Source: Planctomycetota bacterium
GTDB taxonomy: Bacteria; Planctomycetota; GCA-002687715; DRQF01
DNA: 64,000 nucleotides
Reading direction: 5' to 3'
Assembly (NCBI GenBank): GCA_047639315.1
Contig: JBLINQ010000002.1
Span: forward strand, 6,634-70,633
A model generated the notes under the pieces. It saw only the letters and a list, made by a program, of their open reading frames with translations, searched no databases and was not told the DNA's origin. The translations under genes and the position numbers were made by a program. Of the stretch, positions 38,093 through 48,457 are shown one piece after another. Positions within the stretch are counted from its first letter, which is position 1. Every line of letters starts with the position of its first letter.

Positions 38093-40384
38093 TTAGTTTT
38101 CTTGAGCCGAATTCGTTTCTTGGAGGATCACCGGTGAAATGGCAATCTCTTCGATCCGGAAATTCGACGAACCTGATGGCAAGATGACTTCAATCTCTGC
38201 GCCCAAGGATTGTCCAAGTAGTCCGCGCCCGAGTGGTGCCATGTAGGAGATGATGTGTTTGTCCATATCAGCATCCCATGGGCCAAGAAGGGTGTAGGAC
38301 TCGGTGATTGCCTTGTCGAGGTTCGTAATGCGAACTTCGCAGCCAATCGCAACCGTTTCATTGTTGACGCTGTCGGCATCAATGATACGGGCCTTGTCCA
38401 AGGAGTTTTTCATCTCTTCGGCGCGAGCAGTCAAAGCAGATTGCTTTTCAAGTGCAGCGGTCCATTCGGCATTTTCTGACAAGTCACCGAAGGAAGCAGC
38501 ACGGGTGATTTCCGTAGCGTTCTTCGGAATCTCGTCGTTGACAACGATGTTGTATTCATCTTCGTAGCGGAGGTAGCCCGCATTAGTAACGTAGATGATA
38601 TTCTCGTCGATAGCGCCGATGGTGTCGAGTTTGCGTTCTTCTGCTTCGGCACGACGTTTCGCGACTTCTGGGCGGGCTCTCAAGAGAGTCGCGACCAAGA
38701 TGTCTTTCACGTCATCAGGAAGGCTTCGGCTACCGCGGATGATGTTATAGAAACCACTCGCTTCATTGATGGTTCCTTCATCCAAGGTGTCGCGGAGGAG
38801 TTGCGACTTCTTGGCGACCAAGAGCTTCTCAATGTCTTTGCATTCTTTGCGGTAAGGCTCTTTGCGTGGATCTTTGTCGTCGCAAAGGAGGAACTTGCTC
38901 ATGCAATGTGAATGCAAGAGGATCGTCTTCTCCAAAAGGGACGTCAAAGAAGGCAATGGCAGTTCTTTGTGGATCTTCTTCTTCAAGCGGAGCTTGACGT
39001 ACCACACGAAGCTGCCGCGAAGATCACGGAACTTGGTGGCGAAGTCTTCGATGGCACGAGCTGTGCGATCGTAGGCCTTAACCGCCAAGAGCTCCTTCGA
39101 GCAGTATTCGCAAATGTCAGCCTCGCCCAAGTAAAGAGCGCGTTCGAATGACTCTTGCCAATCTTCTTTGAAGTTGTCTTTGATGCGAGCCAACACTTCC
39201 TTGCGGTCAGCGTTGATTGGCACAGTGGCCAAGTTGTCGAGGAAGCTGAAAGGGTCGGCCAAGATGTTGTCGAGAAGGAGGTCGTCTGGGATCTCGTAGT
39301 TATCTTCCATGGCAGCGATTTTCTCAAGCATGAGAGCAAGGCTGATCGCAGCGCCAGGATATTCGTCTCGTTCTTCAGCCGCACTCTTTGCCAGAACTCC
39401 CGCAGCAACCATCAAGGCTGGGCGAGTTTCTGGATGTTCTGTTAGCTCAATGAAGAGTTCGCGGACGTACTTGATTTTGCGCGGGAGGGTGCGAAGACCG
39501 CGAAGGTTGATCAAAGTTTGATCTTCGAAATTTTGCTCGGCGATCGTGACTTCAACAGTCGGGTTGTTGCCGGTTGTCATCTTGACGTTGGAATCACGCT
39601 TGGCCTTGGTCCGAGTCTTTGCCCACCATTTCGACCAGTCCTTCGTCGGGATGACCCCTTCGGTCAGCCGTTCGCGAAGATCGCGAACAGTTGTTTTTCT
39701 TTCGCGGCTGGTGACGACGCATTTCACCAAGGAGACAGGGTCTTCCTTGGCCATCGTCTGGAGGTCTTCAATGCGATCGAACTTCATCGCCTTGTAGCTA
39801 CTCCGTTCGAGATGCTTGGTAATGCTGCGTGCCATGTCGAGCCCGAGCTCGTGGCCCTTCAGCTCAAAGAAGTCGATGGTGACGGTGCCTTCGAGCGTAT
39901 CGACTGAAGCGACGGTTCCGACACCCCATCCGGCTGGATGCTCGACGTAGGAGCCTGGCTTGAAGCGCAAGTAGCTCTCGAGCTTCTCTGCGCAATCGGC
40001 GACCTGAATATCTTCAAGGATGCCAGAATGCTCGATCAACGTCTCGAGGCCCTCATTGTCGGCGTACTTGCGACGGAGAACTTTCAGGAAGTTATCTCGG
40101 AGGTTACGATCTCTCGGCGCGACGGTCGACAGATGATGAAGGCATTGAAGACCCTCATCGTCTTTCTCGGCGTCATCCAAGTAGCAGGGCAGCAACATAT
40201 TGATGTACGTCGCTGCTTTGCCCAAGTGGCCCTGGGTTTCCAAGGCGTAGATGCCCTCAAGAAGACCCTCAACGTCAGAAGAATCATTGGCGATAGCTTC
40301 CGCCCAGGCATTCTCAAATGGCTTGAGATCGTGTTTCTGAGCGAGGTCAACAAGGCGCTTGACGGTCTGTGATTTGGCTGGCAT
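38093..40384 (-). CDS. 763-aa GreA-family transcript cleavage factor fusion (large N-terminal extension + complete C-terminal GreA module)
   Basis: The C-terminal ~175 aa aligns by eye with E. coli GreA: FGDLSENAEWTAALEKQ matches HGDLKENAEYHAAREQQ, and SYMAPLGRGLLGQSLGAEIEV matches [20 protein letters not shown]. Residues ~150-215, FKPGSYVEHPAGWGVGTVASVDTLEGTVTIDF, resemble a CarD/TRCF-type RNAP-interacting Tudor-like domain. Confidence 0.75.
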   Translation of the reverse strand: MPAKSQTVKRLVDLAQKHDLKPFENAWAEAIANDSSDVEGLLEGIYALETQGHLGKAATYINMLLPCYLDDAEKDDEGLQCLHHLSTVAPRDRNLRDNFLKVLRRKYADNEGLETLIEHSGILEDIQVADCAEKLESYLRFKPGSYVEHPAGWGVGTVASVDTLEGTVTIDFFELKGHELGLDMARSITKHLERSSYKAMKFDRIEDLQTMAKEDPVSLVKCVVTSRERKTTVRDLRERLTEGVIPTKDWSKWWAKTRTKAKRDSNVKMTTGNNPTVEVTIAEQNFEDQTLINLRGLRTLPRKIKYVRELFIELTEHPETRPALMVAAGVLAKSAAEERDEYPGAAISLALMLEKIAAMEDNYEIPDDLLLDNILADPFSFLDNLATVPINADRKEVLARIKDNFKEDWQESFERALYLGEADICEYCSKELLAVKAYDRTARAIEDFATKFRDLRGSFVWYVKLRLKKKIHKELPLPSLTSLLEKTILLHSHCMSKFLLCDDKDPRKEPYRKECKDIEKLLVAKKSQLLRDTLDEGTINEASGFYNIIRGSRSLPDDVKDILVATLLRARPEVAKRRAEAEERKLDTIGAIDENIIYVTNAGYLRYEDEYNIVVNDEIPKNATEITRAASFGDLSENAEWTAALEKQSALTARAEEMKNSLDKARIIDADSVNNETVAIGCEVRITNLDKAITESYTLLGPWDADMDKHIISYMAPLGRGLLGQSLGAEIEVILPSGSSNFRIEEIAISPVILQETNSAQEN

Positions 40385-40434
40385 AGCTGGAATTCCGTCC
40401 TTTCAAGGACTCTCAAACGTGAAGCGTTATACTA

Positions 40435-41613
40435 TTAAACTGGACTCTCGATTCCACGGCTGGAGTCGAGAGGTCTTTGGTAAAGGCGATGAGTCTTGTG
40501 GGCAGTTCCACCGAGTTTCTCAATTGTGTTGATCATGACGGTGTTTGTTTCGAGCACCCATCCAAGCTCACTCCATTTCTTGCCTAAGTCCCGCGCTGCA
40601 CGAAAACTCTCATAGTAGAGCACGGAGTCAAGCCCACGGCGCTGCATGTCGCGACGAATTCCCATCGCCAAAAGGCGGATATCTGGGATCTTCTTCATAC
40701 CGAAAAGCAGCTTAAACAGTCCGAAGGGAAACAACTTGCCTTTGAGGTTCTGCGTGATGTAATAGATGTCCGGGAGCACAAGACTGAAGCCTACAGGATG
40801 TCCGTCAACTTCGACGAAATTAGCCAACTTAGCTTCGACTATCGGCTTCATTTCTTTGGCCATGTGGTCAATTTCCGCATTGGTCAAGCCCACGTGACCC
40901 CAATTCTCCATCCAAGCGTCTTCGTAGATGTCTTTGAAGCGCTTGACCTCGTCGGGGAATTTCTTCATGTCAAACGGGCGAACACTGAGATTCTCACGTT
41001 TCTTGATGCGCTCGATGATCCGCTCCATGCGTTCTGCGCCAAATTCCATGACGGGTAGGCTGAAGGAAATGAGGTCCATCACCTTTTCCAAGCCATAACC
41101 CGTTATCAGATCTTCGTACCACGGCGGATTCCAGGCCGTGAGCACTGTCTGGCGCCAATCGAATCCCTTGACCAAGATTCCAACTTCATCATTCATGCTG
41201 AAGCTGACTGGGCCGCGCATTTGGTCTAGGCCCCGGTCGCTTAACCATTGAGCGGCTCGATCGAGGAGTGCCTTAGCGATCTCGGGGTTGTTCTCTGATT
41301 CAAACCACCCAAAGAAGCCAACGCCATCCTTATGGATCTCGTTGTGGCGTCGATTTTCGATCGCAGCAATGCGACCGACGCAGCGATCTCCATCCAAGGC
41401 GATGAAATATTCCGCCTCAGCGTGCTTGAAGAAGGGGTTCTTCTGCTTGTCCAAGCGCGCTTTGACGTCGAACAAAAGGGGGGGTACGAAGTGTTTCTCG
41501 GCAGAATGGAGGCGATATGGAAGGTCGATGAACTGCCTAAGATGTTTCTTGCAGGCAATGACTTTGACTTCGTATTTCAAAACCGTGGCGCCCCCAAATC
41601 GGAGCGCCAGCAT
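40435..41613 (-). CDS. GNAT-like acyltransferase family protein (~390 aa, double-lobed)
   Basis: The pattern FIDLPYRLH...FVPPLLFDVKARLDKQKNPFFKHAEAEYFIALDGDRCVGRIAAIEN and the C-terminal LAMGIRRDMQRRGLDSVLY are acyl-CoA N-acyltransferase-like. It sits immediately downstream of the SPT-like gene. The start is uncertain. Confidence 0.55.
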   Translation of the reverse strand: MLALRFGGATVLKYEVKVIACKKHLRQFIDLPYRLHSAEKHFVPPLLFDVKARLDKQKNPFFKHAEAEYFIALDGDRCVGRIAAIENRRHNEIHKDGVGFFGWFESENNPEIAKALLDRAAQWLSDRGLDQMRGPVSFSMNDEVGILVKGFDWRQTVLTAWNPPWYEDLITGYGLEKVMDLISFSLPVMEFGAERMERIIERIKKRENLSVRPFDMKKFPDEVKRFKDIYEDAWMENWGHVGLTNAEIDHMAKEMKPIVEAKLANFVEVDGHPVGFSLVLPDIYYITQNLKGKLFPFGLFKLLFGMKKIPDIRLLAMGIRRDMQRRGLDSVLYYESFRAARDLGKKWSELGWVLETNTVMINTIEKLGGTAHKTHRLYQRPLDSSRGIESPV

Positions 41614-41626
41614 TCATCGTCTTTGA

Positions 41627-42820
41627 TCACTGGTCTGCTGCGACATTCGCATGGGACGCGAGTTTTGCAAACACGCCCAATGTGAAGTCCAGGTCTTCCT
41701 GTGTATGAGTAGCCATGTAGCTGGTCCGTACTAATCCGACGAATGCCGCTGGGGGCACCACAGGATTGACGAACAGGCCTTCTTCAAAAATTCGTTTTGC
41801 GAACTTAAACGTATCGATTTCCTCGCCGACGCGGATCGGGATGATCGGCGTCTGAGAGCCCATCGTGTCGAAGCCGAGAGCATCCAAGCCCTTCTTCATC
41901 TTGCTGACGTTATGTCGCAAGCGTGTCAGATGCTCTGGTTCGCTCTCGAGGATGTTTAGTGCGGTCAAAGCAGATGCCACGTTAGGTGGCGATATACTTG
42001 CTGAGAACATCAATGAGCGAGCCATGTGCTTGATGAAGTGAATCACTTCGTCACTGGCCGCGACGAACCCACCAAGGGATGCTAAAGACTTCGAGAAAGT
42101 ACCGGTGACAATGTCAACGCCACTATCCGGGCCGATCATGCCAAAGTGCTCGGTTGTACCACGACCGCGTTCGCCGAGGACACCAACACTGTGGGCGTCA
42201 TCAACCATCACTCGGGCGCCATACTTGCGGGCTATAGCAACGATTTCAGGCAGCTTGGTGATGCCGCCCAACATCGAGAAGACACCGTCGACGACGATGA
42301 GCTTGCCAGCATCAGGCTTTGCAGTCTTGAGTTTGTTTTCGAGGTCTTCTAGGTCGCCATGACGGAAGCGTTTCACGTCGGCGTAGCTGAGGCGACAGGC
42401 ATCAATAATGGAAGCGTGATTGTCTTTATCGCAATAGACGATGTCGCCTTTACCTGCGATTGAGGCAATGACACCCAAATTGACCTGGAAGCCAGTGGAA
42501 AAAGTGACAGCTGCAGGATAGCGCAAGAAATTGGCCAGGCGTTCTTCTAATTCCTCATGCAACGAAAGCGTACCGTTTAGGAAACGAGAGCCCGTGCACG
42601 ATGAACCGAATTGGTCCAGAGCATTCTTGGCTGCAGCCAGTACCCGAGGGTCATGAGTTAGGCCCAAATAGTTATTGGAACCAATCATCACCAATTCACG
42701 ACCATCGATCGTGACTCGAGAGCTAGTAGAGCTACTTGTTGGTCGGAAATACGGATACAGATCGGCCTGAATAAGCCGTTCTGCACGATCGAACCGACGA
42801 CACTTGTCAAAAAGATCCAA
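41627..42820 (-). CDS. alpha-oxoamine synthase, serine palmitoyltransferase-like (PLP-dependent)
   Basis: It matches the remembered Sphingomonas SPT pattern closely: GSNNYLGL, GSSCTGSRFLNGT, KRFRHGDLEDLENKL, VVDGVFSMLGGI, VDDAHSVGVLGERGRG, and the PLP-Lys motif GTFSKSLASLGGFV. Confidence 0.75.
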   Translation of the reverse strand: MDLFDKCRRFDRAERLIQADLYPYFRPTSSSTSSRVTIDGRELVMIGSNNYLGLTHDPRVLAAAKNALDQFGSSCTGSRFLNGTLSLHEELEERLANFLRYPAAVTFSTGFQVNLGVIASIAGKGDIVYCDKDNHASIIDACRLSYADVKRFRHGDLEDLENKLKTAKPDAGKLIVVDGVFSMLGGITKLPEIVAIARKYGARVMVDDAHSVGVLGERGRGTTEHFGMIGPDSGVDIVTGTFSKSLASLGGFVAASDEVIHFIKHMARSLMFSASISPPNVASALTALNILESEPEHLTRLRHNVSKMKKGLDALGFDTMGSQTPIIPIRVGEEIDTFKFAKRIFEEGLFVNPVVPPAAFVGLVRTSYMATHTQEDLDFTLGVFAKLASHANVAADQ

Positions 42821-42876
42821 ATCAGTACCTTCCCACTGAGGATCCAGTATACGTCGTCGGGAGCGCGACGCTCAAC

Positions 42877-42890
42877 GGGACTATAGTCCC
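42877..42890. promoter_or_regulatory. perfect 14-bp palindrome in divergent promoter region (candidate operator)
   Basis: GGGACTATAGTCCC equals its own reverse complement. It lies between the SPT-like gene start (42820, minus) and the SDR gene start (42989, plus). Confidence 0.3.
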
Positions 42891-42988
42891 ACGGCGGACT
42901 TTATGTCAAATTCCCCGAACCACTTCAATTTCATCCGTAAGAGTTTGAAGGGACCTATTTTGCGTGACTTAATGAGATGCCCTAAGGA

Positions 42989-44011
42989 ATGTCCCTGCAA
43001 CCCTTAACAGATAACTACGCAAATCAGACAATCGCTGTAACAGGTGGTTCCGGGTTCATCGGTGCTCGACTTTTGCGGCAATTGGCGCAAAGTCAGCCAA
43101 AAGAGCTTCGGGTTCTGGTCCGAAAAAGCTCCTCTTTAGACCTGATTAACGACCTGGAAACCGATGTTCGAATCGCTCCTCTTGAGGACGAAAAGGCCTT
43201 GGATTCGGCCTTAGAGGGCGTTGACTACGTTTTTCACCTCGCTGGCCTCACTCGCGCCAAGACCCGAGAGGCCCTATTTCGGGTCAATGCCGAGGGAACC
43301 GCGAACTTGGCAGCTTCGGTCAAGCGGGTTTCTCCTTCGGTTCGGCGCGTCGTCTTGGTTGGAAGCCAAGCTGCAATGGGCCCTAACCCACAGGAATGCC
43401 AAGAAGTTAGGGAAGATGATCAGCCTCGCCCGGTTACCTGGTATGGCGAATCAAAACTGGCTGCGGAGAAGGAGTTCAAGAGGAACCTCGGGGAACTTCC
43501 TTGGTCCATTGTCCGTCCGCCAGGCGTATATGGCCCCGGTGAAAAAGACTTTCTTAGCATGTTTCGTATGATCAAGAACCGATTTTCGCCGGTGATTGGC
43601 TTTAAGCCCAAGTCTTACTCCTTGGTCTTCTCGGATGACCTCGTTGACTCGATTTTGGCTGTCGCAACAAGTGAGAGTGCGGTCCAGCGGACGTACTTTG
43701 CGGCCGATCCGGCTGTCTACACCACCAACGATCTCTTGACGGCCATCGAAGGGGCCTTGTCCCGGCGGGCCTGGAAACCGCCGCTTCCTGAGTTCCTCGT
43801 TTATGGGTTAGCTGGATTCAACAGCCTCATCTCCCCCCTCATGTCACGACCGCCCCTCCTCAATTTACAGAAAGTGAAGGAGCTCCTGCCTGATCGTTGG
43901 GTGGTCTCAACAGATCGGCTGCGAGATGAAGTCGGCTTCGTCTGCCCGACTCCGCTCGACGAAGGGATCGCGGCGACCGCCCAGTGGTATCGAGAAAAAG
44001 GATGGCTTTGA
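42989..44011 (+). CDS. NAD-dependent epimerase/dehydratase family (extended SDR) reductase
   Basis: GGSGFIG Rossmann motif and the catalytic YGESK (YxxxK). 340 aa. Confidence 0.8.
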   Translation: MSLQPLTDNYANQTIAVTGGSGFIGARLLRQLAQSQPKELRVLVRKSSSLDLINDLETDVRIAPLEDEKALDSALEGVDYVFHLAGLTRAKTREALFRVNAEGTANLAASVKRVSPSVRRVVLVGSQAAMGPNPQECQEVREDDQPRPVTWYGESKLAAEKEFKRNLGELPWSIVRPPGVYGPGEKDFLSMFRMIKNRFSPVIGFKPKSYSLVFSDDLVDSILAVATSESAVQRTYFAADPAVYTTNDLLTAIEGALSRRAWKPPLPEFLVYGLAGFNSLISPLMSRPPLLNLQKVKELLPDRWVVSTDRLRDEVGFVCPTPLDEGIAATAQWYREKGWL

Positions 44012-44045
44012 GTTCAGGGGTTCGTCCTGGTGGTATTCTAATCCT

Positions 44046-45029
44046 ATGACCCACGGAGCCCTGACCATTTCCGCCTGTATCGTTTTGCACAATGAGGCTG
44101 GCGATTTGCCCGCATTGCGTGAAAGCCTTGGGCTTCAATCCTGCCCGATTGATCAAGTCATCTTTTGTCTTAACGGTGACAACGACGCCGTCAAGGAAGT
44201 GACCCAAGAGCTATTCCCCGGTGCCACGATCATTGATCAAGAGCAAAACCTTGGGTTCGCGGGCGGTATCAACGCTTGTTTGGCCGCGACTGACAGCACT
44301 TACGTCCTTCTGCTCAATGCGGACGTTGTTCTAAACGCGGACTACGTACAGTGCTGTCTGGATGTCTTCGATGCCGAGGAGCAAGTTGGTGGGGTCGGCG
44401 GTATTTTGCTGCGGTCCAAGGATGGCGAAGACTGCATCGACACGGCTGGGTTCGTGATGCAACCATGGCTGCGCATCGTTGATCGCGCGGCGGGATCCAT
44501 TGACCTGGCTCAGTTTCATGAACGGGAAGCCGTGATTGGGGTCTGTGCCGCCGCCGCCGTTTTCTCTCGCGCCGCTCTTGATCAAGTTGCCGAAGCTGGG
44601 GCCGTGATGGATGAAGACTTCTGGATGTACAAAGAAGATCAGGATCTTTGCCTCCGGATCAAGGAAGCCGGGTGGCAAGTCTTCTTTGAACCAGCTGCCA
44701 AAGGTCGTCATCATCGCGGATGGGCCCCAGAACGTCGATTTGACGTGCCAATCGAAATCCGACGCCATTCTCTGAAGAATCGCTATCTCCTTCTGACCAA
44801 GCATTGGCGCTTTGGCTCGCATTCTTGGAACCTGCCCATTCTCTTCCTATTCGAGATTCTGCTTTTTGTAGGTCTTTGCCTACGAGACCCGAAGGTTCTC
44901 ATCGGCTATGCTCGGGCTTTAGCCCTCCTGCCGAAAATGCTCGCCAAAAGAAAGAAGTTAATACGTCGGTTTTCTCGTACAAAGAAGGACGGAATCACCA
45001 AGCGCTTGGCAACATTCCTGGTCGTGTAA
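44046..45029 (+). CDS. glycosyltransferase family 2
   Basis: ISACIVLHNEAGDL...GFAGGINA...LLLNADVVL (DxD-like). It has a GT2 fold pattern and a C-terminal TM. I prefer ATG 44046 over the track start 43926, which overlaps the SDR gene. Confidence 0.7.
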   Translation: MTHGALTISACIVLHNEAGDLPALRESLGLQSCPIDQVIFCLNGDNDAVKEVTQELFPGATIIDQEQNLGFAGGINACLAATDSTYVLLLNADVVLNADYVQCCLDVFDAEEQVGGVGGILLRSKDGEDCIDTAGFVMQPWLRIVDRAAGSIDLAQFHEREAVIGVCAAAAVFSRAALDQVAEAGAVMDEDFWMYKEDQDLCLRIKEAGWQVFFEPAAKGRHHRGWAPERRFDVPIEIRRHSLKNRYLLLTKHWRFGSHSWNLPILFLFEILLFVGLCLRDPKVLIGYARALALLPKMLAKRKKLIRRFSRTKKDGITKRLATFLVV

Positions 45030-45038
45030 TACGGAATC

Positions 45039-45908
45039 ATGCAACTTTCCATCGTCATAACTAGCTTCAACACCCGCCCCTTGCTGCATGACTGCCTCCA
45101 GTCGATTCAGGAGTCAGAAGGCGGCGTCGAGTTTGAGGTTTTTGTTGTCGACAACGGCTCGACCGATGGATCACCAGGAATGGTGAAGACGGAATTCCCC
45201 CAAGTACAGCTGTTTGAAAACAAGACCAACCGAGGGTTCGCCAAGGCCAACAATCAAGCATTGCGGCAAACCCAGGGCGACTATGTTCTACTACTGAACC
45301 CCGATACCCAACTCAGGTCCCAGACCCTCAGCGAGATGATTGAGGTCATGGACGAAAAGCCAGAGGTGGGATTGGCCGGAATTAAGCTCGTCCGCCAGGA
45401 TGGTCAGATGGATCGGGCCTGCCGACGTGGGTTTCCAACCCCATGGAACTCATTGTGGCGGTTCTTGCTGTTAGACCGTCTGTTTCCGAAAAGCCGCTTC
45501 TTCGGCGGTTACAACCTCTCATTCATGGATCCTGATGGCGAGTACGAGGTTGACGCTATCGTCGGGGCATTCATGTTTTTCCGTCGGGAAACTCTAGAGG
45601 AAGTCGGAGTCTTGGACGAGAACTTCTTCATGTTCGGTGAAGACTTGGATTGGTGCTACCGGGTGAGCCGAAGCGAGTGGAAGATCCTTTACGTGGGTTC
45701 CAAAGAGGTGCTTCACATCAAGGGCGCATCGACCCGACAAAACCCGCAGTTGATGAATTCACACTTTCACCGGGCCATGCTCATCTTCCACAAGAAGCAT
45801 TTGGAGCATCACTACCCATTCTTCATCAATTGGCTTGTATCCATCGGAATCGGCCTTCGCTGGGTCTGCAAAGCTGTCCTCTTGCGCTTTCGTCGCCGTC
45901 ACGCCTAA
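45039..45908 (+). CDS. glycosyltransferase family 2 (rhamnosyltransferase-like)
   Basis: LSIVITSFNTRPLL...VVDNGSTDGS...NRGFAKANN...LLLNPD...GAFMFFRRE...FFMFGEDLDWCYR are the canonical GT2 motifs. Confidence 0.85.
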   Translation: MQLSIVITSFNTRPLLHDCLQSIQESEGGVEFEVFVVDNGSTDGSPGMVKTEFPQVQLFENKTNRGFAKANNQALRQTQGDYVLLLNPDTQLRSQTLSEMIEVMDEKPEVGLAGIKLVRQDGQMDRACRRGFPTPWNSLWRFLLLDRLFPKSRFFGGYNLSFMDPDGEYEVDAIVGAFMFFRRETLEEVGVLDENFFMFGEDLDWCYRVSRSEWKILYVGSKEVLHIKGASTRQNPQLMNSHFHRAMLIFHKKHLEHHYPFFINWLVSIGIGLRWVCKAVLLRFRRRHA

Positions 45909-45985
45909 AAGACTTCCTTTGTTGCTAACGAAAGCACTTCACCAAAAGACCCTCGAACGGGTATACTTCCTTGGCGAACGAAAGC

Positions 45986-46771
45986 ATGAGGAATGAAATG
46001 TCCGAACCGATTATCCGAATTCAGGGTCTGACCGACGTCGGCAAGAAGCGAGATCACAATGAAGATCGTTTCTATGTCTCAGAGATCCATAACTATGCGG
46101 TTTTAGCTGATGGTATGGGAGGGCGCCATTTCGGTGAAGTCGCTGCTCAGATGAGCGTTGATAGTATCCGGGATCGGTTTGAGAGTTATTTCCCTGAGTC
46201 AATCAGCAGCCTCCGAACAGCAGATCAGGCCCATTGCTCTGACATGGTGACCTGTCTCCTAGACGATTGGATTCGTGACGCGAATTTTGAGGTCTGGAAT
46301 CGCGGTCAGAAAGAAGAGAAGTATCGAGAGATGGGCACGACGCTGGTTATGGTCTACACCTTACCCAGCATGGCTATCGTCGCTCATATTGGTGATAGCC
46401 GAGGTTATCACATTGATGCGGACGGTAAGATGAAGCTGGTCACCAATGACCATTCATTCGTCAATAGTCAGGTGGCGACCGGCGCCATGACGATTGAAGA
46501 GGCGGAAGCCAGCAACCAAAAGAACATCATCACTCGCGCGATCGGAACTCACCGGCAGGTGAAACCCGAATTCAAAGCGATTCGCATGCATGCCGGAGAA
46601 CGACTCCTGCTTTGCTCGGACGGCCTATCCGACATGGTGGGTGCCGAAGCGATCGGCGAAATTGCCGCTCGGAGCGAAAAGGGCAAGCACATCTTGGAGG
46701 CCTTGGTAGAAGAGGCCAACCACAATGGTGGCCGTGATAACATCACCGTCGTCCTTGTTGAGTACCTCTAA
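45986..46771 (+). CDS. PP2C-family Ser/Thr protein phosphatase
   Basis: LTDVGKKRDHNEDRF, LADGMGG, HIGDSRGY, LCSDGLSD and GGRDNITVV are the classical PP2C/Stp1 motifs. ATG 45986 is preferred. Confidence 0.85.
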   Translation: MRNEMSEPIIRIQGLTDVGKKRDHNEDRFYVSEIHNYAVLADGMGGRHFGEVAAQMSVDSIRDRFESYFPESISSLRTADQAHCSDMVTCLLDDWIRDANFEVWNRGQKEEKYREMGTTLVMVYTLPSMAIVAHIGDSRGYHIDADGKMKLVTNDHSFVNSQVATGAMTIEEAEASNQKNIITRAIGTHRQVKPEFKAIRMHAGERLLLCSDGLSDMVGAEAIGEIAARSEKGKHILEALVEEANHNGGRDNITVVLVEYL

Positions 46772-46786
46772 GACCTTGTTGTCTTC

Positions 46787-48457
46787 TTAGCGACCGTAGA
46801 CACATACACCATTGATGTATGTGGCACGGACTTTTGCTTTCAGTAGCTCCTTGGGCGGACAAGTCCTCAAATTGGTATCGACCAAGATGAAGTCGGCCAA
46901 CTTACCTGGTGCGAGGCTTCCCAGGCTGTTCTCGTTAAAAGACGCGTACGCTCCAGCCTTGGTGTAGGAGTAGAGTGCTTCCCTCCTTGTCATGCACTGA
47001 TCTCCAAACCAGCCGCCCTTCGGCAGCCCCTTGGCATTCATTCGAGTTACCGACGCATATAAACCGGCGAAGGGTGTGAGTGCCTCCACTGGTGAGTCTG
47101 TGCCATTACAAATCACTGCACCGGCATCCAAGAGACTACGCCACGCATAGGCTCCCACTTCTGCACGTCCTTGGGTGACGCGTGCGACTACCCACGCCAT
47201 GTCAGAGGTGCAATGAACGGCTTGCATGGAAGCAATGACTCCCAAGGATGCGAAGCGAGGGATATCATCTTGGTGCAGGATTTGGGCATGTTCGATGCGA
47301 AAGCGCGGATCTGCGACCTGAGGAAATTTCGGGAACAGGTCGGCCCAAGTGTCGAGAACCATACGATTCCCTCGATCACCAATGGCATGAACACAAATCT
47401 GGTAGCCGCGCTCCAATGCAATGCGACTCATTTCCTTGAATGCGGCTTGGCGGGTGAGCAGGAGTCCTTGGTGACCGATACGATCCGCGTAGTCGCTGAT
47501 CATTGCCGCACCGCGCGAACCAAGCGCCCCGTCAGCATAAATCTTGAGTCCTCTAACGGTCAACTTACCGTTGTGATCACCGACCCTTGGCGGGATGACT
47601 GTTGCCAGCTTGGTTTGTCTGATGTCACTCACGCCAAGCATGACGTAGAGGCGCAGCTTCAAATCGCCTGAAGCATAGAGTTCGTCAAGTAACTCGATGT
47701 CACGTCGATCTGTTCCTTGATCATGAAAGGAAGTGATTCCGAGCGAGAGTGCCAGCTTTTGCGCGGCTAACATGTCAGCGCGTTTTGTTGCCTTGTCGGT
47801 TGTCGGCACCACCTCGTTGATGAGCACCATGGCCTTGTCGATCAGGACGCCGGTCGGTTCACCATTCTCTTTGCGGATGATCTCGCCACCGGCAGGGGCG
47901 GCTGTCGTCCTAACCATGCCAGCAAGGTCCATAGCCTTTTTGTTCGTTAAGAGTGCGTGGCCATCGACTCGTCGTAGGGCGACAGGGTGGTTTGGGACCG
48001 CATTACTCAGAGCATCATGCTCCGGAAACTCTTTTGAAGACCAGAGGTTCTGGTCCCACCCTCGGCCTGTGATCCATTCGCCAGCAGGGCGTGTCTTGGC
48101 TTCTTTTTGAACCAACTTGATCACCTCTTCGAAACTTTGGGTCCCATTGAGGCGAACAATTCGTTGGCTGTTGCCGACACCTTGGAAATGGGCGTGACTG
48201 TCAGTGAACCCGGGCATCACGTAGGAACCGTGAGCACCGACTTCCACAGTCTTCTTGCCAGCTAAGGCCCGAATTTCCTGGTCGCTACCCAGTTTCGTAA
48301 TGCGGCCGTTCTTGATCGCCATAGCCGTGGCTTCGGGATATCGGGAGTCCATTGTTTCGATGCGTGCATTGGTCACGATGACATCTGGATCTTGCGAGAG
48401 ACCTGTAGCTGACGCCAACAAGAGCAAAATGAGTGTCAAGACGGTGTGCTTCTTCAT
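46787..48457 (-). CDS. secreted amidohydrolase family protein (Amidohydro_3-like metal-dependent hydrolase)
   Basis: Signal peptide MKKHTVLTLILLLLASATG. Metal-binding motifs are GFTDSHAHF, a later HAIGD, and a C-terminal GTDSPVE. 556 aa. Confidence 0.75.
   Translation of the reverse strand: MKKHTVLTLILLLLASATGLSQDPDVIVTNARIETMDSRYPEATAMAIKNGRITKLGSDQEIRALAGKKTVEVGAHGSYVMPGFTDSHAHFQGVGNSQRIVRLNGTQSFEEVIKLVQKEAKTRPAGEWITGRGWDQNLWSSKEFPEHDALSNAVPNHPVALRRVDGHALLTNKKAMDLAGMVRTTAAPAGGEIIRKENGEPTGVLIDKAMVLINEVVPTTDKATKRADMLAAQKLALSLGITSFHDQGTDRRDIELLDELYASGDLKLRLYVMLGVSDIRQTKLATVIPPRVGDHNGKLTVRGLKIYADGALGSRGAAMISDYADRIGHQGLLLTRQAAFKEMSRIALERGYQICVHAIGDRGNRMVLDTWADLFPKFPQVADPRFRIEHAQILHQDDIPRFASLGVIASMQAVHCTSDMAWVVARVTQGRAEVGAYAWRSLLDAGAVICNGTDSPVEALTPFAGLYASVTRMNAKGLPKGGWFGDQCMTRREALYSYTKAGAYASFNENSLGSLAPGKLADFILVDTNLRTCPPKELLKAKVRATYINGVCVYGR

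Follow-up and report, generated by a model that had tools for sequence, protein, structure and literature searches.

A candidate Spt/bCerS/CerR ceramide synthesis locus with a neighbouring pair of GT2 glycosyltransferase genes in a planctomycete genome

We analysed a 64,000-nucleotide stretch of DNA, here called the window, which is contig C2:6634-70633 of a 5.2-Mb metagenome-assembled genome (MAG) of 280 contigs that is 89.6% complete; the nearest relatives of this genome are labelled Planctomycetota. An earlier reading of the same DNA, here called the original prediction, had pointed to five genes as a possible ceramide or glycosphingolipid locus, and all five open reading frames (ORFs) were present at the coordinates that it gave. 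Two of them lie on the minus strand: an Spt-like alpha-oxoamine synthase (AOS) gene with a TTG start (41627-42820; 397 aa), whose product is a serine palmitoyltransferase (SPT) candidate, and, 13 nt downstream of it (41614-41626), the gene for a tandem-GNAT N-acyltransferase of the bCerS family (40435-41613; 392 aa), a ceramide synthase candidate that we call GNAT. Across a divergent intergenic region of 168 bp (42821-42988), which carries the AOS promoter, the plus strand encodes a CerR-like reductase of the extended short-chain dehydrogenase/reductase (SDR) class, belonging to the NAD(P)-dependent epimerase/3beta-HSD family (42989-44011; 340 aa), and two family 2 (GT2) glycosyltransferases, GT2a (44046-45029) and GT2b (45039-45908; 289 aa), each of which ends in a C-terminal hydrophobic helix. 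Both the 13-nt gap and the 168-bp spacer agreed with the earlier description, and the peptides quoted there, GSSCTGSRFLNGT, KRFRHGDLEDLENKL, GTFSKSLASLGGF, GGSGFIG and YGESK, were all found in the translations. The GT2a frame is open from 43926, which would make it overlap the SDR gene by 86 nt; because its homologs are 317-327 aa long, the true start is probably the ATG at 44046, which gives 327 aa. The GC content is flat over the region, and there is thus no sign of a foreign island. From the sequence comparisons that follow, we judge with a probability of roughly 0.85 that AOS, GNAT and SDR constitute a module for ceramide synthesis that corresponds to the Spt/bCerS/CerR pathway known from Caulobacter.

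The original prediction held that the AOS resembles SPT rather than Kbl or BioF, and this was borne out by structure-database scores, by the ranking of protein family models and by phylogeny. Against the PDB, the best match was Sphingobacterium multivorum SPT (3a2b; 392 bits), followed by the alphaproteobacterial SPTs (279-286 bits), Kbl (239 bits), cysteate-C-fatty-acyltransferase (CFAT; 212 bits for 28eh and 186 bits for 7u7h, the latter of which we take to be Alistipes SulA) and BioF (196 bits). The AOS and 3a2b are 48.6% identical over 391 aa and their active-site motifs align gap-free: the Schiff-base lysine motif, GTFSKSLASLGGF, is the same in both, and GSRFLNGT, HASIID and DDAHS are conserved. 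The AOS carries the Pfam domain Aminotran_1_2 (2e-54), and among the NCBIfam models SerpalmtaseCFB, the SPT of the Cytophaga-Flavobacteria-Bacteroides (CFB) type, ranked first with 494 bits, ahead of betaproteobacterial SPT (391), the Kbl-related model (378), BioF and Kbl (360 each) and alphaproteobacterial (AlphaP) SPT (322). Judged from the CFB and alphaproteobacterial model scores, the window's Spt is of the Bacteroidota-like type. A maximum-likelihood tree was built from 70 sequences, 62 of them AOS genes adjoining GNAT homologs; the sample also took in S. multivorum SPT, Sphingomonas Spt, the AOS of a Streptomyces AOS-GNAT-SDR trio, E. coli Kbl and BioF, and the two further AOS paralogs of the MAG itself. 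The window AOS fell, together with 3a2b, in a clade of 60 rows with an SH-aLRT support of 98, and Kbl and BioF, both those of E. coli and those of the MAG itself, lay outside it. S. multivorum SPT (PDB 3A2B/8GUH) is thus like the window AOS in identity, in shared motifs and in its place in the tree.

These data bear on two other identities for the enzyme. The AOS might be a Kbl or BioF paralog, in which case the cluster would be unconnected with long-chain-base lipids, and the Kbl-related and BioF models do still score 360-378 bits. The MAG, however, encodes a true Kbl elsewhere (654 bits, cut-off 493) and a BioF-like protein, so those functions are already covered; the tree sets these two apart from the window AOS, and neither tdh nor bio genes were found among the neighbours. 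We give this identity almost no credence. The original prediction had also raised a sulfonolipid or capnine-type product, for which the AOS would be a CFAT; the chemistry and gene classes are analogous, with an AOS, a reductase and an N-acylation. CFAT was compared by the PDB bit scores and stands outside the tree sample; its 212 and 186 bits are under the score of Kbl and far under the 392, 286 and 279 bits of the SPTs. No cysteate-synthase-like PLP (pyridoxal phosphate)-dependent enzyme was found among the ten neighbouring genes scanned, and both GNAT and SDR have counterparts among the partner genes of sphingolipid clusters. The sulfonolipid alternative is thus not supported, and a CFAT identity is very unlikely.

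The Spt/bCerS/CerR pathway was reportedly defined by Stankeviciute et al. in 2022 and Olea-Ozuna et al. in 2021. The ceramide genes of Caulobacter crescentus are those for Spt (CC_1162/CCNA_01220), bCerS (CC_1154/CCNA_01212) and CerR (CC_1164/CCNA_01222) (PMC11324152, PMC11087976), and they are laid out as cerR, acpR and spt (CC_1164-1162), then LptF2/LptG2 (CC_1156/1155) and cerS (CC_1154) (PMC11324152). A tblastn search of plasmid and chromid records found a replicon (chromid) of Sphingomonas parapaucimobilis in which the order is NAD(P)H-binding protein, acyl carrier protein (ACP), AOS, ATP-binding protein, LptF, LptG, desaturase and N-acetyltransferase. The AOS of this cluster qualifies as a true SPT of the alphaproteobacterial type (833 bits, cut-off 670) and the layout matches that of Caulobacter, with the N-acetyltransferase in the bCerS position after LptF2/LptG2. 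The window GNAT is a homolog of this N-acetyltransferase over its full length (33% identity over 383 aa, E 2e-68), and when the Sphingomonas protein was searched against the MAG the window GNAT was the sole match. The suggestion that the ~390-aa GNAT-like protein is of the bCerS kind was supported by its homology to the gene in the bCerS position of an alphaproteobacterial sphingolipid cluster. The Pfam match of the window GNAT, to Acetyltransf_1, is weak (4e-6); the protein had no NCBIfam match and no PDB sequence match, and no NCBIfam model matched the Sphingomonas protein in the bCerS position either. An AlphaFold2 model (pLDDT 85, pTM 0.84) showed a tandem-GNAT fold. Its top Foldseek matches were tandem-GNAT amine N-acetyltransferases (5kf1, 2wpw, 7q3a and MshD, E ~1e-12), and the structural matches, which include glucosamine N-acetyltransferase, MshD and MAB_4324, resolve the fold no further than 'tandem GNAT'. 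The modelled fold is in keeping with the N-acylation of an amine from acyl-CoA.

The SDR has the GGSGFIG (GxxGxxG) and YGESK (catalytic YxxxK) motifs of the extended-SDR Rossmann class and matches the Pfam domains Epimerase (1e-26) and 3Beta_HSD (4e-22). It is a full-length homolog, at 27% identity (E 5e-23), of the NAD(P)H-binding protein that lies beside acpR-spt in Sphingomonas, and with the epimerase of the Streptomyces trio it shares 33% identity. In reciprocal searches the window SDR was the best match in the MAG, and the only full-length one, of both the Sphingomonas and the Streptomyces reductase. The window SDR and the Sphingomonas reductase also share their top NCBIfam match, HpnA, in each case far below threshold. 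An epimerase-family reductase of the CerR kind, as originally proposed, is accordingly what the reciprocal best hit with the CerR-position reductase of Sphingomonas points to.

Homologs of the window GNAT are widespread: more than 1,400, of ~373 aa, were found in Planctomycetota, Gemmatimonadota, Ignavibacteria, Bacteroidota and other phyla. Two sets of them carry annotations that deserve comment. YghO of E. coli K-12 (b2981; L127:5044-6216), annotated as a 'putative DNA-binding transcriptional regulator', is homologous over its whole length to the tandem-GNAT protein of the bCerS family (29% identity, E 3e-60), and its regulator label looks wrong. In E. coli K-12 an IS5 element lies between yghO and yghQ, and on a Pseudomonas veronii plasmid (L117) yghO is found near an AOS gene, an 86-aa ORF and yghR/yghS. 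Given the homology of YghO and the proximity of an AOS gene in P. veronii, the yghO-yghT region may be what is left of a lipid cluster linked to an AOS gene. In Roseomonas gilardii plasmid pRo-1 (L118:4965-6122) and in 12 other Roseomonas records, a bCerS-family homolog is annotated as 'dATP pyrophosphohydrolase'. It directly follows genes for LptF/LptG-family permeases and a sterol-desaturase-family gene, that is, it has a sphingolipid-cluster context, and the label is probably a propagated misannotation.

The order of steps that these assignments predict is as follows. The PLP-dependent Spt-like enzyme would condense L-serine with a long-chain acyl-CoA to 3-ketosphinganine; the tandem-GNAT bCerS homolog would N-acylate the amine from acyl-CoA, and the extended-SDR CerR homolog would reduce the C3 ketone, the product being dihydroceramide. 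The last two steps could take place in either order, and work on the model organisms has not settled which comes first. The two membrane-anchored GT2 enzymes, whose genes run co-directionally with those for SDR and for a PP2C phosphatase on the plus strand, may then glycosylate the ceramide, which would yield a glycosphingolipid; this is the least certain step, and its chances appear to us slightly under even. In alpha-, beta- and gammaproteobacteria, spt is accompanied by dedicated ACP and ACS genes (PMC9386255). A check for such genes, which had been called for earlier, found neither an ACP nor an acyl-ACP synthetase near the locus, which fits a non-proteobacterial, acyl-CoA-using type of Spt. 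The MAG contains a single ACP-like ORF, on another contig, and a system of the AcpR/AasR type was rejected on that account. Elsewhere in the MAG, contig C185:1788-2738 encodes a homolog of the fatty-acid desaturase of the Sphingomonas sphingolipid cluster (36% identity), which could be a sphingolipid desaturase.

The association of the three genes was followed with a GNAT profile scan of one genome per species, which gave at least 596 loci; the neighbourhoods were read in the best 80 of these, from more than 15 phyla. The AOS gene directly adjoined the GNAT gene in 63/80, an SDR homolog was present in 53/80, and AOS, GNAT and SDR were found together in 52/80. Annotated examples of the trio also come from Streptomyces, Rubrobacter and Aureispira, and the divergent layout, with SDR facing AOS-GNAT, is common to the window, Aureispira and Ignavibacteria loci. 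Within Planctomycetota, GNAT (E <= 1e-30) was present in 129 of 301 sampled species genomes (~43%) and in 107 of 237 genera. It was found in all sampled genomes of the window's family and order except G287. This genome, which is the only one of the same genus in the sample and is 92% complete, had no match to GNAT or GT2b; a missing contig and a real loss are both possible. Six genomes had a GNAT gene with no AOS gene within 9 kb, and four of these carried an Spt-like AOS (48-54% identity) elsewhere, as against none of six GNAT-negative genomes, in which only Kbl- or BioF-level matches were seen. As a variation on the trio, a Streptomyces sp. NBC_01001 linear plasmid has a condensation-domain gene directly after the AOS-GNAT-epimerase genes, with overlapping stops and starts (L088:10072-11319), which may point to a modification of the product in these actinomycetes.

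The expression signals of the AOS gene are conserved as well. On the minus strand, TTGACA (42909-42904) and TATAGT (42885-42880), separated by an 18-nt spacer, form the best sigma-70-like match in 40000-47000, with agreement at 11/12 positions. Five related loci keep the TTG start with its GGAAGG Shine-Dalgarno sequence, and the TTGACA element and a -10-like hexamer are likewise conserved in relatives. Transcription of AOS and GNAT together from this conserved TTGACA-N18-TATAGT promoter is almost certain. The -10 hexamer TATAGT is itself contained in a perfect 14-bp palindrome, GGGACTATAGTCCC, at 42877-42890; the palindrome is imperfect in relatives, reading GGGATTACTGTCCC in locus L007 and GGGCTATACAGTCCC in locus L092.

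Several points must be set against the assignment of the locus to ceramide synthesis. The AOS lies under all of the NCBIfam equivalog cut-offs for SPT: 494 vs 640 for the CFB model, 391 vs 500 for the betaproteobacterial (BetaP) model and 322 vs 670 for the AlphaP model. This shortfall is expected, since these models (NF047600, NF047599 and NF047603) are lineage-specific and the host belongs to another phylum, and it means that the substrate, whether serine, alanine, glycine or another, is not fixed by the sequence. The GNAT and SDR are assigned to the bCerS and CerR families by way of syntenic Sphingomonas proxies for Caulobacter CCNA_01212 and CCNA_01222. Finally, a literature search for sphingolipid chemistry or lipidomics in any planctomycete found only a Black Sea metagenome study. 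The cut-offs in particular leave room for an Spt-like enzyme that uses alanine or glycine, with 1-deoxy-ceramide-type or related N-acyl amino-ketone lipids as products, and Ding et al. (2024) described abundant 1-deoxyceramides in anoxic water and the same enzymes making them from alanine (PMC11334938 and supplement). Against this, the SPT to which the AOS is 49% identical, and with which its active-site motifs align gap-free, is serine-specific, and a sugar head-group, if the GT2 enzymes are involved, needs a C1 hydroxyl. We consider a substrate other than serine improbable. Taken together, homology, phylogeny, synteny and co-occurrence support the parallel with the Caulobacter ceramide pathway that the original prediction drew, all of the chemistry being inferred, and we favour the ceramide module as the reading of AOS, GNAT and SDR. 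The organism probably makes sphingolipids, and perhaps glycosylated ones.

For a long time only a few bacterial groups were believed to have sphingolipids, a view that was overturned when the Spt/bCerS/CerR pathway was defined in 2021-22. Metagenomic studies are said to have since predicted the Spt/bCerS/CerR pathway in ~40 phyla. Like Caulobacter, the window has a PLP-dependent AOS, a ~380-aa tandem-GNAT N-acyltransferase and an extended-SDR reductase, and each of the three is homologous over its whole length to its syntenic Sphingomonas ortholog, with which it forms a reciprocal best-hit pair. Unlike Caulobacter, the window has no dedicated ACP (AcpR), no acyl-ACP synthetase (AasR), and no nearby LptF2/LptG2 or phosphoglycerate head-group genes; its three genes make up one compact divergent unit, and its Spt is Bacteroidota-like. 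In Bacteroidota that produce sphingolipids, the genes of the trio were reported to be unclustered (PMC11334938, citing Stankeviciute et al. 2022), whereas those of the window are adjacent. The compact trios of Gemmatimonadota, Ignavibacteriota, Zixibacteria, Acidobacteriota, Actinomycetota (Streptomyces and Rubrobacter) and Aureispira (Bacteroidota) consist of the same genes as the window, and this compact form is what Ding et al. 2024 (PMC11334938) refer to as 'Spt-like clade B with co-localised bCerS and CerR'. The earlier statement that sphingolipid synthesis is not established in Planctomycetota holds for biochemistry only; a genomic prediction existed, since Ding et al. 2024 found Spt-like genes in 138 Planctomycetota MAGs (PMC11334938). 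The locus is therefore a clean and compact planctomycete example, whose core finding confirms published genomic predictions and overturns nothing. It provides the lead that cultured relatives should contain ceramides.

The linkage to the GT2 genes is the only part that goes beyond the published predictions. GT2a and GT2b match Pfam Glycos_transf_2 (3e-16 and 7e-26, respectively). GT2b also matches Pfam Glyco_transf_21, the GT21 family of ceramide glucosyltransferases, weakly (25.4 bits, E 1e-5) and in a segment that overlaps its 91.5-bit GT2 match. The argument for a role of the pair in ceramide glycosylation is comparative. Four families of the window's taxonomic order share the gene order PP2C-GT2b-GT2a-(Kelch in some)-SDR<>AOS-GNAT, even where the GreA neighbour found in the window is lacking, and in three further families, which include those that we call f6 and f36, GT2b lies 4-10 kb from AOS-GNAT on one contig wherever the assembly permits. 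GT2a, too, is conserved beside GT2b in f6 and f36. The genes between AOS-GNAT and GT2b are a third GT2 in f6 and, in f36, those for a Kelch protein, for a GT4 and for a fusion of GT2 and GT4. Orthologs of GT2b (>= 50% identity) were found in 20 of the 301 Planctomycetota genomes; GNAT was present in 20/20 of these, the base rate being 129/301, and GT2b lay within 10 kb of GNAT wherever the contigs allowed. The comparative evidence argues, with moderate strength and at the level of gene content, for a glycosyltransferase battery that would work with the ceramide genes.

Other observations count against a glycosphingolipid. Apart from the weak GT21 match, the similarity of GT2a and GT2b in NCBIfam and the PDB is of a generic GT2 kind, to rhamnosyltransferase, PgaC and exopolysaccharide (EPS) enzymes, and GT2a had no PDB sequence match. 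Among the best 80 of at least 596 loci, the GT2 pair was absent beside the trio in all other phyla sampled, and the compact trio loci of those phyla differ from the window in this respect. The SDR gene is missing from the cluster in f6 and f36, and the linkage within the phylum perhaps spans only ~4-5 independent lineages. An alternative, then, is that the trio makes a sphingolipid and that the GT2 pair and PP2C are unrelated neighbours engaged in envelope polysaccharide synthesis or protein glycosylation; the product would then stop at ceramide or carry a non-sugar head-group encoded elsewhere. The generic similarity of the two enzymes favours this alternative, as does the count in other lineages, where the pair did not adjoin the trio in 79/80 loci, again the best 80 of at least 596. 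The insertion of a Kelch gene between SDR and GT2a in several relatives shows that the GT2 genes are separable from the SDR gene, and in close relatives much of the neighbourhood is syntenic anyway. The alternative of unrelated neighbours is harder to reconcile with a linkage that survives the loss of GreA across the order and recurs in f6 and f36, or with the presence of GNAT in 20/20 GT2b genomes as compared to 43% at large. We regard unrelated neighbours as quite possible, if not quite probable. The glycosphingolipid reading of the GT2 pair we hold tentatively, at a little less than even odds. That part of the original prediction is not proven, and gained support from linkage and co-occurrence within the phylum.

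To our knowledge, the bacterial ceramide glycosyltransferases characterised so far are of the GT4 type. Those of Caulobacter are Sgt1 and Sgt2. The eukaryotic GT21 glucosylceramide synthase, the Bacteroides fragilis alpha-GalCer synthase BF9343_3149 and Zymomonas ZMO1957 (PMC10865984) are membrane-associated, as GT2a and GT2b would be. In class, GT2a and GT2b are ordinary GT2 (GT-A) enzymes, which would set them apart from the characterised bacterial ceramide glycosyltransferases. The pair is a candidate for ceramide-glycosylating enzymes outside Proteobacteria and Bacteroidota. A more speculative proposal, which we put forward with reserve, is that GT2a and GT2b represent a new GT2-type family of bacterial ceramide glycosyltransferases, and that a sizeable branch of the Planctomycetota builds oligoglycosyl-sphingolipids alongside lipid A. 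If true, this branch could be one source of the glycosylceramides of bacterial origin that occur in anoxic marine waters. A glycosphingolipid that replaces lipopolysaccharide was considered and rejected: the genome has homologs of lpxA, lpxB, lpxC and lpxD, which means that a glycosphingolipid, if made, would occur side by side with lipid A.

The genes around the GT2 pair vary among relatives. In many of them a Kelch-repeat beta-propeller protein of ~535 aa is encoded between the SDR/AOS genes and the GT2 genes, for example at L094:3770-5383, L096:3889-5484 and L124:6156-7796; the gene is absent from the window and from loci L007, L092, L099 and L102. At the f36 locus (L124:8047-13070), the GT4 gene and the gene for the GT2-GT4 fusion, of ~1,260 aa, lie between AOS-GNAT and the GT2 pair. 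In the window, a gene for a PP2C Ser/Thr phosphatase of the Stp1/IreP type (45971-46771, plus strand; NCBIfam 239 bits, cut-off 230) follows GT2b after 62 nt in the same direction. Its position is kept in the four families of the order, and it is absent from that position in f6 and f36. On the other side of the locus, directly downstream of GNAT, lies a minus-strand gene for a 763-aa GreA fusion (38093-40384), whose place beside GNAT is kept within the family and lost across the order. In this protein the N- and C-terminal domains of GreA occupy residues 597-747, after a long N-terminal extension, and homologs of the fusion carry the Pfam domain HTH_GRAD.

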